Shown here one piece after another: positions 123 to 63,284 of a stretch of DNA of 64,000 nt. Position numbers and translations under genes: made by a program. The stretch comes from Amoebophrya sp. A120. Its lineage: Eukaryota; Protista; Dinoflagellata. Each line of letters begins with the position of its first letter. Positions within the stretch are counted from its first letter, which is position 1. Location: assembly GCA_905178155.1 (NCBI GenBank), contig CAJINV010000006.1, positions 892,557-956,556 of the forward strand, given 5' to 3'. A model generated the notes under the pieces. That model was not told the DNA's origin. It saw nothing but the letters and a program-made list of their open reading frames with translations, and did no database searches.

Positions 123-1986
123 CAGCACTGGGCGATGATGTTCAACGCGCGGACGGAGTTTTTTCATTGGATGGACCAACAGGACAAGCTGGTGAAAAAA
201 CGCAACGAAAAAACCGGGAAAAACGAAACCTGGAAAATCGACATGCAGACCCTGAAAGACGCGGTTCTGTACGGGACCAACACGAGTCAAGCAACGGATG
301 AGATGGAAATCACCGATGGCACAGAAGATGAGGAAACTTCGTTCGAAGTGGACGCGAAGAAGGTGCACAAGCGCAAGAAAACGGTGACCCACCACAAGAA
401 GAATCTCGTCGCGTTTGGAAAAAACCAGTACACCATGGCGATCAACGCTTTTGAGTTTCACGACTACAATCCGAAGGACGGGTATCTGTCAACGGACGAG
501 ATCAAACAGACGATGGAAGAATTCAAGCAGATCGAGCGGCGCGCGTTTGTATCCCATGTAAAAGCTGCTGCGTCGTAGAACAACCTGTAGTTCTTGGTAA
601 AGCCGCATGACAAATTCCATATCTCGTCACGCAGAGAAAATTTGTAATGCGATTACTACGTACTAGTTGTTTACCTATGATGCGCTTTTGCAATGTCGAT
701 AGCCTGCGTATGAGGATGACTTGGAGGAGATCATCGGGATGGATTTGCTTTCCAAAATGCCGTATCAAATGCAAACATGCCCGGGTCTGGAAGAGTGCAG
801 ATTTTTGTCATGCTGTTTCTGCATGACACAGAATGTCTGTCATGGAAGCCCTAGTAGCATCACAGATTTTTTCGAGAAGGTTCCGCATTGATGCCTGATC
901 CGCATGCCAAATCCCCCATTTTGGTGACAGGAAGCGGGCATCTTTTGCTGCCTCTGCATGACGAGAGATTTGTGTGTGTTGTGAAATGCGCATCACAAGT
1001 TCGCATCCTTCCAGACATCCAGGAATATTTGCACTGCATATCCCGCACTACCGGGACCTGAAGCTGGAGTTGCTCGGGAAGCGGAAGTGGAAGAAAAACC
1101 GGGAGGGGCAGAACAACAAACGACTGCGCAAGATCGCGAAGAAGGTCAAGCTATGCATTGCAAACATGTCTGGGTCTGGAACACAGCAAGTTGTCATGCT
1201 AAGTCTGCATCGTAGAAAAATCTGTGTTGCATGATTGCCAAAAGTTGTCCACTTTTGACCAAGTTGGAGCCGAGTTTCTCATCCAGGATAGGCGTGATAG
1301 ACATTTCGCAGGGTCTGTCATGCTTGTTCTTGCATTCCAGACCTCATGGGCCATGGAAAATCTGCATGACAAGTCCTGCCATGTTCCAGACCCAGAAATT
1401 TTTGTAGTGGATACAGGCAGCGCCTGCGCAAGGCGGTTTACGAGGACCCGCAGCTGATGGAGGGGCACGTGGTATCCCGTGTAAAAACGTCCCCACCTCC
1501 CCATAGTTGTCATGCAATTCTGCATGCCAAAAAAGTTTCTCATGCGGAGCCCTATGAGAAGCATTCTCTATTCGTGTTTTGGAATTTGTGATGCAAGAAT
1601 CAGCATGCTGCGCTAGATCTGTCATGCTTCTGAACTAGCTCAACAGGATTACACTACGAGAACAAGCTTGTCATGCCAAACAGCCAAGGCTGGTTGATTT
1701 GTCTAGCAAATTTCCCAGTGAGCCTCTGGTGTAGGGACGTTTTTAATCAGGATACGTGGCACATGTGGACCTGATCGACATCCGTACCGCAATCAGCCGC
1801 CGCAACTACCCGGGAATTTGGGTCTACCCGCGAGTATGGCGATGGAGAGAATCTTCGTTTTTGATGAGACCACACAGGAGTAGCTGCGTGAAGAGCATTT
1901 TATTTTTGGGAGAGCTTGGGCTTGTCAAGATTCTAGGTGGCCTCTGCATGATGTTGACAAGTTCTGAGCTGGTCTGTGCGTGTTGA
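123..1986 (+). CDS. 3' part of a multi-exon gene with an EF-hand-like Ca-binding motif (5' end outside window)
   Basis: Removing introners 550-701, 763-1040, 1152-1413, 1473-1754 (+5 nt each) gives one frame. Contains AFEFHDYNPKDGYLSTDEIKQ (SPARC-type EF-hand pattern). Last exon and stop are uncertain. Confidence 0.65.
550..701. mobile_element. Introner, divergent F2-like
   Basis: TAT..ATA; DR GTTTG/GCCTG. Confidence 0.75.
763..1040. mobile_element. Introner F1
   Basis: TIR; DR TGCCG/TCCCG. Confidence 0.9.
1152..1413. mobile_element. Introner F1
   Basis: TIR; DR CAAGC/CAGGC. Confidence 0.9.
1473..1754. mobile_element. Introner F3
   Basis: TIR; DR CGTGG. Confidence 0.9.
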
Positions 1987-3181
1987 CAAGTTCTGAGCTG
2001 GATTCTGGGCACGACTACTTCTGTAAATATAATTTCTCATACGAAGTTCTTTCTCTTGCATAGCAGTTTCCCAAGGACCACTACCATGCCGACCACTACA
2101 AGGGCCACAACGCTGGGCACGATGCGAATGACGAGCTGTAAGCAAAGGAGGGGAGTCAGTACATGGGCGTACTAGTGGGTGGTATGGTGATGCATCACAA
2201 GAAAATCGATCTGTATCTGCAATCACGCAGGTTTTCGCTCTGCAAATTTTTCGAAGTTAGTGTTTTTTTTTTTGAAGACATTGAATGCCGCATGTTGATC
2301 CTTCGGGTTTCAGATTGTCATGATGCGTGTAAAGCTAAGCTTAAACAATTAATGTCCAAGGCTTAGCGAAGAACGATGGAAGCTCCAGCAGAATATCATG
2401 GTTGTATACCCTGGTAGATTTCGAAGAAACGAGGAAGAAGAGAAAGATTCAGTTTACGACGTTCACATCGATTTGATTTTTGCAACTTTTTTTCAATTAC
2501 TGTCTCGTGCCCGTTGTATTTTTTGCGTTCATGTTTGTACTGAAGTAGCTTGTTTAACAAAAAAAATACCCCGATGTAGATCACATTACTTACGTTACTT
2601 ACTCTCTGGATCGAGTGAGTTGCCCCTTTTCGTCAAAAACCTCCGAGGTGTTTGAATGTCAAAGACTTCTCAAAAAATTTCAAAAACTGTCAAAGCTCAC
2701 AGCCAAAAAAATAAATCGAATTGTTGTGAAGAAAAGGACGAGCAGTTTTTGCTCTCAGCCTTCTATCTCATGGTGTAAAAAGTAGTTGGTTCATCGCGAG
2801 CACGCAGTAGCATATCTTTCGACATCCAACGAGAGAGCGAAGAACCGCTAGTGAGATAACTGGTTTTGCAAAAACAATGACAAACTGCATGTTGATGCAC
2901 CATGATTCTGCGTGCAAGGATTCAGTTGCATCCATGAGATTATTCACCGAGTGAGTGAAAAAACTACCACTTGTTCTATGATTTTCTTCTATCGGTGTTG
3001 TTCTACTTGGGTGCATTAATCATGTTGCTGCATTCAGATACACCCAGCACTAGCTCGGGCCACGAAGTAGATCTTCATTCCGCATGGCACATGATGTCCT
3101 CGACCACTGCCTCCAGCAGAGCTAGGTCGTCCTCTTCCACCCCTTCAATTTTTGACTTCGAGGACCACTTCGGCCACCGTG

Positions 3182-61850: not shown

Positions 61851-62218
61851 CAGCGGACGCCACGGCTCATATCTCGTTTGAAGAGAGTGAGTAGTTGCTT
61901 CGAGGTGTAGCATTCTTGCGAAATTGATAAACCCAATCTGGAAATTCGCACTCTTCTTCTGGCATAATGCTTTGGCTTTGTAGTAGTTTAGTGTGTCTAC
62001 GAACGACCTACGATGGGCGCAGGCGCCAAAAACTACATTACTAAAGCGTTCTTGCGAAGAACGAAGAAGAAACCCAAGCCATGGCCCGCCTGTCTTACCG
62101 CCCTCCTGTAAGTGCAAGAAGTGCCTGTCTTTCATCTTCCTCCCGAGACGAGACTGCGACCGTGAGCCCGCCGGGTGTGCTGGTGTTTGTTCACTGCAAC
62201 ACTGTTGTGTAGAACTAG

Positions 62219-63284
62219 ATGAGCCGGTATGCTGTGGAAGCACGTCCCCACCCCAGAGTTGTAGCGCAAATCTGCATGCCTTGATAAAATGTTTCTGATG
62301 CGGAGACACATGAGAGGCGTTTTCTACTTGTGATGCGAGATGATTTGTCATGCTCGAATCAGCATAACAAACTGGATCTGTGATGCCGCTGCACTAGCTA
62401 AACACGACTACACTGCGAGCCCAAATTTGTCATGCGCGACTGCCAAAGCTTAGGGATTTGTGTAGCAGATTTCCCATCTTGACTCTGCCTAGTGTGGGGA
62501 CGGTTTTCTTCACGATAGCCGGTTTCTAAATGAGGACCCTAACGTCCACGAGACCGAGACGGGCCGCTTCTTCATATCCACTGCAAATATGGCTAGGTCT
62601 GGAAGAATCAAACAATGCAAGATTTGTAATGCGAAATACCCATACCTCCGAACTCTGTCATGCGCGTTCTTGCGGAATAGCGCTGATTCTGTGGCATTCA
62701 AAAACGCAGTTTCTCATGCGGCCGACGCAAAGTCACAGGACCGTTAAAAGATCTGTCATGTTTGGCTGCGTAGTACTGTAGTCGTTTTGTCACTCCTCGA
62801 TCAGCTGCATGACAACTTATTTCCAGACACATATTTTCGCTGGATACTCGACGCAGCTGCGTAATGGCGTGGAGGAGATCCGCATGCCTTGGTACATTCG
62901 GCGGGACCGGAAATATCATGTGCAAAAGGATCGCACTCGTAGTAAAAATTGCGTTCATGCATTACAAATCTCTTTCCCAAGGTAAATCAGCATTACAAAT
63001 TCAATTTGTTGTAGTGATGCTGGGCTAATTTGTAATGCATTTTCATTCTTTTATACGAGTACGAGGATGCTTTTGCAATGCATAGGAAAACCGTGCGATT
63101 GATTCCGCTGCGGAAACACGCGACGGCCGTGTACCGGAGCATCAGCGAAACGCCCGCAAACGGTTCCAACGCGCGAACGCCGTACGAAACCTCACGACCC
63201 TCGTACGAGCAAATGCGGAGAAGATACGACTTGCCGCCACTGTATTTACAAGGCTGCAGCTTATGTCGCGTAGTGGGAGGGTGA
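62219..63284 (+). CDS. Small hypothetical protein (3' end uncertain, abuts GC-rich island)
   Basis: MSR|FLNEDPNVHETETGRFF|TQLRNGVEEIRMPWYIRRDRK|TVRLIPLRKH... in frame after removing 3 introners. Confidence 0.55.
62228..62517. mobile_element. Introner F3
   Basis: TIR; DR GCCGG. Confidence 0.85.
62575..62846. mobile_element. Introner F1
   Basis: TIR; DR CTTCA/CTCGA. Confidence 0.85.
62914..63084. mobile_element. Introner F2
   Basis: TIR; DR GGAAA. Confidence 0.9.

Follow-up and report, generated by a model that had tools for sequence, protein, structure and literature searches.

How can introns whose interiors cannot be aligned all be handled by one cellular machinery, and what in them is recognised? 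The question is raised by a 64,000-nucleotide stretch of the dinoflagellate Amoebophrya sp. A120 (GenBank assembly GCA_905178155.1, contig CAJINV010000006.1, positions 892,557 to 956,556 of the forward strand; hereafter the window), whose genes are densely filled with introners, intron-forming elements bounded by terminal inverted repeats (TIRs) and a target site duplication (TSD). A first-pass annotation had noticed a short motif repeated inside these elements whatever their family. We followed this motif through the window and through a second assembly, JACKZZ01. We put the probability at about one half that the motif, RAWYTGTVATGC in its extended form, is a subterminal site for one shared mobilising protein, likely a transposase or its helper. 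A role in transposition is suggested by the symmetric subterminal position of the sites, the conservation of every site, core divergence that tracks copy age, the tips and TSD shared by all families and the precedent of the maize Ac/Ds elements.

Introners of A120 have been described as carrying an inverted repeat of TAT, seven variable nucleotides and AAA, direct repeats at their borders and non-canonical splice sites, with a mean length of ~240 nt and many families (Farhat et al. 2021, PMC7789003, in the sections consulted). The TAT inverted repeat, the border direct repeats and the non-canonical splicing are the same in the window.

Introners of the window

We curated 89 elements of the form TAY..RTA, of which 72 were called automatically and 16 by eye, and one is a host rebuilt around an element nested in it. 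Composite or cut elements at 1-122, 18928-19934 and 42757-45660 were excluded from family work.

550..63084: span of the 89 curated TAY..RTA elements, 145-375 bp long with one of 1,047 bp, in 11 co-oriented gene models on the + strand

The elements start with TAT or TAC and finish with ATA or GTA. Their 5-bp TSD is perfect in 51 and has one mismatch in 24 of the 89, whereas a perfect duplication of 6 bp is found in none. The ends fit the A120 pattern TAT-N7-AAA, with AAA deviating in families E, F and H, and the elements are removed from RNA without GT-AG borders, a feature of A120-type introners (contigs of run X1, presumed to be RNA and from one study). From this we infer that they are the published TAT-type introners. 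The families had been called unrelated, which holds for their interiors only, as the TAY..RTA tips, the 5-bp TSD and the splice length are common to all; they are better called one superfamily with unalignable interiors.

Motif content inside and outside the introners

The exact motif TGTNATGC has 268 matches in the window, 146 on the + and 122 on the - strand, with C at the central N in 114, G in 75, A in 72 and T in 7. TIR elements hold 251 exact copies in 21,791 bp, where dinucleotide shuffles predict 7.0, and GT-AG introns hold 12 in 1,547 bp (0.37 expected). Exons, with 2 copies in 17,691 bp (1.8 expected), and intergenic DNA, with 1 copy in 17,511 bp (2.0 expected), are at chance level by the same shuffles; the motif is rare there, as had been noted, though not depleted. 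At least one exact copy is present in 87 of the 89 elements and at least two in 78, and a weight matrix finds at least one site in 88. Both orientations occur in 53 elements by exact copies and in 73 by the matrix, which upholds the initial observation of several copies in nearly every element and in both orientations.

A typical element has 4-6 copies. The consensus extends to RAWYTGTVATGC, or R-A-W-Y-T-G-T-V-A-T-G-C by a family-weighted matrix, in which T0 and TGC are fixed at 97-99%, changes are tolerated at G1, T2 and A4, and T is avoided at N. A motif-like stretch at TIR positions 4-15 passes the threshold in only some ends of families A, B and D.

A pattern scan of metagenomes returned at least 134 stretches from at least 130 loci, at least 60 of the loci on JACKZZ01 contigs. 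The latter contain the same element families at up to 98.6% identity and have no long match to the window. Merging of the 32 longer JACKZZ01 loci gave 27 contig stretches (183 kb) with 150 called elements, of which 146 were kept after four false or inner calls had been dropped; a weight-matrix site is present in 141 of them. Among the matches listed, the remaining 110 loci (70 metagenomic, 40 viral) show no match to the elements; 11 were inspected and consisted of tandem repeats or of scattered hits. The 40 loci of the viral scan have 2-5 motif copies each, which corresponds to chance. A second species was not found among the scan matches listed, which is weak evidence of absence.

Distance to the ends and pairing of sites

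At 391 of 456 element ends the outermost site is 35-60 bp inwards, and at one it is nearer than 35 bp; part of the first 35 bp is occupied by the TIR itself. Inside the elements, sites recur as direct pairs 31-33 bp apart, which is about three helical turns. The following copies represent the families; the four sites first described in the family A example were all confirmed.

17715..17859: family A introner, 145 bp, TAT..ATA, TSD GGACT, with two outward (-) and two (+) sites; removed with 5 extra nucleotides in an RNA contig
17748 (-), 17766 (-, variant GCATGAGA), 17783 (+) and 17814 (+): sites in this element
17783..17821, + strand: two copies of TGTAATGC in the same direction, at 17783 and 17814 (spacing 31 bp)
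18259..18520: reference copy of the family B1 introner; the consensus has six sites, among them pairs spaced 32 and 31 bp
10321..10602: introner of family C, nested in a copy of family E; nearly all sites share one direction, with pairs spaced 30-31 and 33 bp
12457..12664: introner of family D with a 31-bp pair that begins 36 bp from the end
53150..53388: family E introner; four alternating sites 46-49 bp apart, the sole family without a 31-33 bp consensus pair
15778..16003: family F introner, whose consensus has four sites and a 32-bp pair
10657..10978: introner of family G, in which three direct pairs are spaced 32, 32 and 33 bp
17363..17668: introner of family H, spliced out of an RNA contig; two direct pairs, each spaced 32 bp

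A 31-33 bp direct pair is present in nine of ten subfamily consensuses, family E being the exception, and lies within 1 bp of 31 in 39 of 41 family A copies. Direct pairs at 30-33 bp were counted in 13.0 of 21 window clusters compared with 2.7 by random placement (best-window null at most 9), and in 8.9 of 19 clusters of the merged set compared with 2.1 (best-window null at most 8). Among JACKZZ01 copies not chosen by the search pattern, 75 of 102 have a direct pair, against 17 expected. From family to family, the sequences that separate paired sites bear no relation to one another. The smallest of the new families, at 109-116 bp, consists of scarcely more than TIRs and two sites, which are 32 bp apart in two of its three copies.

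Conservation and decay of the sites

Mean identity in the five window families that have enough copies is 0.89 for motif columns and 0.72 for other internal columns. The same contrast was obtained in all ten subfamilies, covering 180 copies, with identities of 0.88-0.96 in motif columns, on a par with the 0.86-0.94 of the TIRs, and of 0.73-0.83 in the other internal columns; within families the motif is better conserved than its neighbours. Because the alignment is anchored on sites that were themselves called on the consensus, the contrast is somewhat inflated; the free central N, which is less conserved than the motif columns in ten of ten subfamilies, serves as an internal control. Conservation across donor lineages extends to each of the 4-6 sites. 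It is very unlikely that the motif is a relic, left over neutrally from a single ancestor or from tandem repeats inside the elements: the tips and the TSD length common to all families would fit such an origin, but the spacers of paired sites are unrelated and the motif columns far exceed their neighbours in conservation while N is free. Unless it is an alignment artefact, the conservation contrast refutes a neutral relic.

In copies with 0, 1 and 2 or more TSD mismatches (n = 131, 38 and 11), core divergence is 3.3, 4.3 and 8.9%, and that of the comparison columns is 10.9, 10.7 and 15.9%. As copies age, the core changes about as fast as the other fixed columns inside the elements, as expected if selection acts on the donor copies. 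Single sites decay near-neutrally after insertion. Selection after insertion had been suggested by window family A and was not upheld in the larger set of 180 copies.

Recognition at the level of DNA or RNA

The 200 elements with known gene strand contain 479 sense and 413 antisense sites; 13 of them are without a sense site and 17 without an antisense site. All ten subfamilies are found in both orientations, with a skew in D2 alone (10 to 1; p = 0.012 without correction). Opposed sites have the same N in 374 of 1003 cases compared with 366 expected, and consensus pairs agree at N in 20 of 53 opposed and 25 of 56 direct cases. The branch-like positions are tolerant (A 82%, T 84%; TGC 99%). Strand symmetry, missing covariation of N and tolerance at the branch-like U and A fit a protein that would read double-stranded DNA on one helical face. 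We consider it highly probable that the motif is a binding site on double-stranded DNA, an estimate that covers both a transposition protein and the host-side reading discussed below. The earlier proposal of a common binding site is supported by conservation, end distance, the 31-33 bp pairs and strand symmetry; of the two binders it named, the transposase is the more likely and a host factor is possible.

An RNA-level signal, either branch-point-like or a site for an RNA-binding protein, would have to be a pseudo-palindrome so that both strands read U-N-A-Y, and T-N-A-Y is indeed directly visible on both. Furthermore, all seven TIR-less GT-AG introns with sense sites have the last of these 41-66 nt away from their 3' end, compared with none of five antisense-only introns within 35-66 nt (pooled 7 of 12, p = 0.047; both observations post hoc). 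We nevertheless judge such a signal improbable. The sites show no preference for either strand, change is tolerated at the A and U that would form the branch while T0 and TGC are fixed, and the 3'-most site is antisense in most copies of families B, E, G and H and sense in family A. An invariant A, restriction to the sense strand and proximity to the 3' splice site, the features of a spliceosomal branch point, were not found, and a fixed pairing at 31-33 bp is not known as a feature of branch points.

Opposed copies had also been proposed to build internal stems. In predicted folds, the opposed outer copies of family A do pair (z = -9.2), whereas the sites of family C, which are nearly unidirectional, are not paired with each other. 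Agreement at N among opposed sites is at the chance level given above, and stems are impossible in GT-AG introns with a single site. That opposed copies serve to extend RNA stems joining the splice sites is very doubtful; as the purpose of the motif, stems are largely refuted by the lack of covariation, though pairing is possible in family A.

Canonical introns and other evidence against a transposition site

Several results weigh against a site for a mobilising protein, and the first concerns canonical introns. Exact sites occur in 13 of 32 GT-AG introns, namely eight of nine in the window, including all five that are defined by RNA joints, and five of 23 held-out introns that were predicted in the second assembly by a motif-blind gene model.

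24714..24857, + strand: GT-AG intron of a glycerol-3-phosphate dehydrogenase gene, RNA contig; one sense site 66 nt from the 3' end, without TIR or TSD
25098..25246, + strand: GT-AG intron, RNA contig; two sense sites, 4/5 TSD-like match at the borders, without TIR
30987..31136, + strand: GT-AG intron, by eye; one antisense site
31565..31729, + strand: GT-AG intron, by eye; three sense sites, two of them within a 28-bp local duplication
34232..34400, + strand: GT-AG intron, RNA contig; one antisense site
35868..36241, + strand: GT-AG intron, RNA contig; one antisense site
36701..36903, + strand: GT-AG intron, RNA contig; exact direct pair 31 bp apart (36819, 36850), without TIR or TSD
48853..48928, + strand: GT-AG intron, by eye; one sense site
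28535..28650, + strand: GT-AG intron without the motif, predicted

The held-out introns contain 8 exact sites against 0.6 expected, and two of the five carriers look TIR-derived. In GT-AG introns the motif is mostly TGTCATGC: N is C in 20 of 22 sites, compared with 50% in elements (p about 1e-4 on 19 of 21), the 22 sites being those of the motif-bearing introns and of one intron found via its hit. Three GT-AG introns hold exact 31-33 bp pairs, and TSD or TIR traces are no more frequent in motif-bearing than in motif-free introns. Owing to the C bias, the exact pairs and the lack of a TSD or TIR excess, neutral relics explain these copies badly. The motif-bearing introns show no likeness to one another once the motif is masked. 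The first-pass annotation had taken the introns at 24714, 25098, 36701 and 48853 for old ones that lost their TIRs. All four carry the motif and the first three are confirmed by RNA; the loss of TIRs is unproven in view of the traces just mentioned, and persistence of the motif in GT-AG introns extends to only the five of 23 in the second assembly. An exclusively sense orientation in GT-AG introns proved wrong, with seven sense-only and five antisense-only introns. Sense sites often follow the form T-run plus TGTCATGCAG (24714, 25098, 31565, 36701, 48853 and two held-out introns), which was noticed post hoc.

The canonical introns suggest, less strongly, that their copies reflect a second, host-side use of the same site. 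In a possible, though less likely, alternative to transposition, the motif is primarily a host mark on DNA: a host protein would bind the paired motif in chromatin and aid co-transcriptional removal of non-GT-AG introns, and introners would succeed by carrying the mark on both strands in a cell without a detected U1 small nuclear RNA (snRNA). U1 was indeed undetected in A120 according to the sections of PMC7789003 consulted. This alternative draws on the GT-AG carriers, which have the motif in either orientation with near-uniform C at N and lack both TIR or TSD traces and mutual likeness, on the near-universal presence of a site in elements (88 of 89 and 141 of 146), and on the absence of the motif from two long TAY..RTA elements, neither of which itself interrupts an exon. 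However, 18 of the 23 held-out GT-AG introns do without it, so that the motif is not needed for ordinary splicing. Single sites decay near-neutrally in older copies, though redundancy could mask selection, and conservation of all 4-6 sites across donor lineages better fits a need in transposition. Moreover, the share of 13 in 32 is near the ~45% of canonical A120 introns that are not position-conserved with A25 (our arithmetic from the 19.4% and 35% given in PMC7789003, in the part consulted), whence motif-bearing GT-AG introns may be introner-derived.

A bolder form of this idea, which we hold to be unlikely, is a DNA-level intron code, in which a host or domesticated transposon protein would bind the 32-bp-spaced pairs on either strand and mark introns during transcription, letting a U1-less spliceosome remove non-GT-AG introns. 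Equally conjectural is its corollary that introners spread by carrying the mark and that some ordinary introns kept or gained its strongest form.

The second point against a transposition site comes from two elements with good TIRs and TSD but no motif, which have moved without it and so speak against an absolute need for the motif.

7466..8512: motif-free element (control), 1,047 bp, family-F-type ends, perfect TSD, nested in a B-type introner; no site above threshold
L098 (contig stretch from L097:9574): intergenic TAC..GTA element, 866 bp, 51-bp TIR, 4/5 TSD match, without the motif

The former has imperfect 136-nt TIRs and inner inverted repeats, and no further copy exists in the data examined. 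Thirdly, no transposase or binding protein was found, with no integrase-like DDE open reading frame (ORF) among 13 ORFs scanned, and the parts of PMC7789003 consulted report no transposase in A120. Integrase-like ORFs in TIR-flanked A120 introners are described in the material consulted from PMC12130899. No autonomous element was found in the window or the JACKZZ01 loci. At L097:824-1915, an insert flanked by a 35-bp direct repeat contains a frame that resembles an integrase C-terminus by eye (L097:899-1333), followed by five antisense motif copies; for this candidate fragment neither Pfam nor homologue nor representative searches gave a hit beyond itself.

Finally, geometry and decay provide some contrary figures. 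Only two of 11 new hold-out clusters have a pair (p about 0.05). Beyond the 31-33 bp direct-pair peak, a geometry that the first-pass annotation had not noted, the spacings show no clear 10.5-bp period; a 10.5-bp or 16-bp lattice is weak or absent. In window family A alone the core does not decay with age (5/124 vs 8/240), and the age test has low power because terminal columns decay at the same rate.

Removal of the introners from RNA

In the X1 contigs, at least 12 elements are skipped as the element plus 5 nt and at least five GT-AG introns are skipped; the transcript loses the element and 5 nt in either element orientation. Of the raw RNA runs X10-X12, 1, 3 and 28 reads mapped, respectively. 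One intron fixes the register.

33774..34153, + strand: spliced-out intron around element 33775-34149, starting 1 nt ahead of its TAT and ending 4 nt past its ATA, with an unambiguous joint of 33773 to 34154

The other RNA joints are compatible with this register, and when all elements are cut out in this way, long ORFs are restored, the longest having 1,629 codons. In the host, the donor consensus of GT-AG introns is GTAT (19 of 33), which implies that the element tip supplies donor positions +2 to +4 while the +1 base is free. AG is not required at the 3' end of an element, and insertion at a G..AG target makes an immediate GT-AG intron (16266, 29333). A B1 copy at 42475-42703 starts with TGT rather than TAT and has the perfect TSD GTAAG, which itself offers a GT donor.

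The introners at 42757-45660 and 18928-19934 are swollen by repetitive insertions of 2.7 kb and 0.7 kb; since ORFs are still restored on their removal, introns of ~3 kb may share the same route. A gene of ~495 codons at 11954-20017 is split by more than 20 introners, with exons down to 5-10 nt between elements. Insertions within elements of all families in both assemblies, although non-coding, are mostly of 3, 6 and 9 nt (136, 40 and 7, compared with 88 of 1 nt and 22 of 2 nt), to which alignment effects may contribute. GC-rich (65-75%) intergenic blocks at 5500-7000, 20600-22200, 60300-61900 and 63300-64000 are each unique in the data examined and contain no exact motif copies.

Discussion

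If the motif is a transposition site, one protein would mobilise all TAT-ended introner families. It would bind pairs of sites on one helix face, and the bound protein would help to bring both ends together for cut-and-paste into 5-bp targets. Splicing would be the task of the TIR stems, which are specific to each family. A new family could then arise from any sequence that has TAT tips and the sites, much as Ds1 and Ac have little in common apart from their tips and subterminal repeats.

Several transposase sites per end are also known from Tn7- and Mu-type elements and from the ends bound by TnpA of CACTA elements, and Tn7 and Mu make 5-bp TSDs. Tips and hosts differ. Presumably the motif is also similar to Sox-Oct composite, PUF and RBFOX sites.

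The best reading is that the motif works like the subterminal repeats of Ac/Ds. In the maize hAT elements Ac and Ds1, as described in the passages of PMC3260210 consulted, non-autonomous elements share only tips and short subterminal repeats, which are cooperatively bound by the transposase; the reference list of that paper names Ds1 acting as an intron. Common to both systems is a repeated short motif near both ends of otherwise unrelated non-autonomous elements. In contrast to Ac/Ds1, the A120 elements have a 12-bp motif, fixed pairing at 31-33 bp, a TSD of 5 rather than 8 bp and family-specific TIR stems; they are routinely spliced in both orientations, the motif has copies in TIR-less canonical introns, and its binding is predicted from sequence. 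Integrase-like DNA transposons of the IS3EU and GingerRoot groups likewise have TA..TA termini, TIRs and no strong target sequence (PMC10045372 and PMC6839031, in part). Their TSD is usually 6 bp, and internal repeats are not described in the parts consulted. Membership in these groups fails on TSD length, with 0 of 89 elements perfect at 6 bp and 51 of 89 at 5 bp.

Farhat et al. describe terminal inverted- and direct-repeat motifs only, as far as the sections consulted go, to which the internal motif, the spacing rule and the subterminal position are additions; none of the three was found in sections 10-12, passages and one supplementary text file of PMC7789003, figures being outside this scope. 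The motif string is absent from 14 supplementary files of PMC12130899. No report of the motif was found in the literature searched, although figures, bioRxiv supplements, theses or Roy et al. 2023 (Curr Biol) could mention it.

Amoebophrya moves and splices tens of thousands of non-canonical introns, and neither a transposase nor U1 is reported in A120 (PMC7789003, in the sections consulted). A shared 12-bp site with fixed geometry is a concrete bait for the missing protein, and it would account for the mobility of about 1,950 families by a single enzyme. Should the binder instead prove to be a host splicing aid, recognition of introns via double-stranded DNA would be a new principle.

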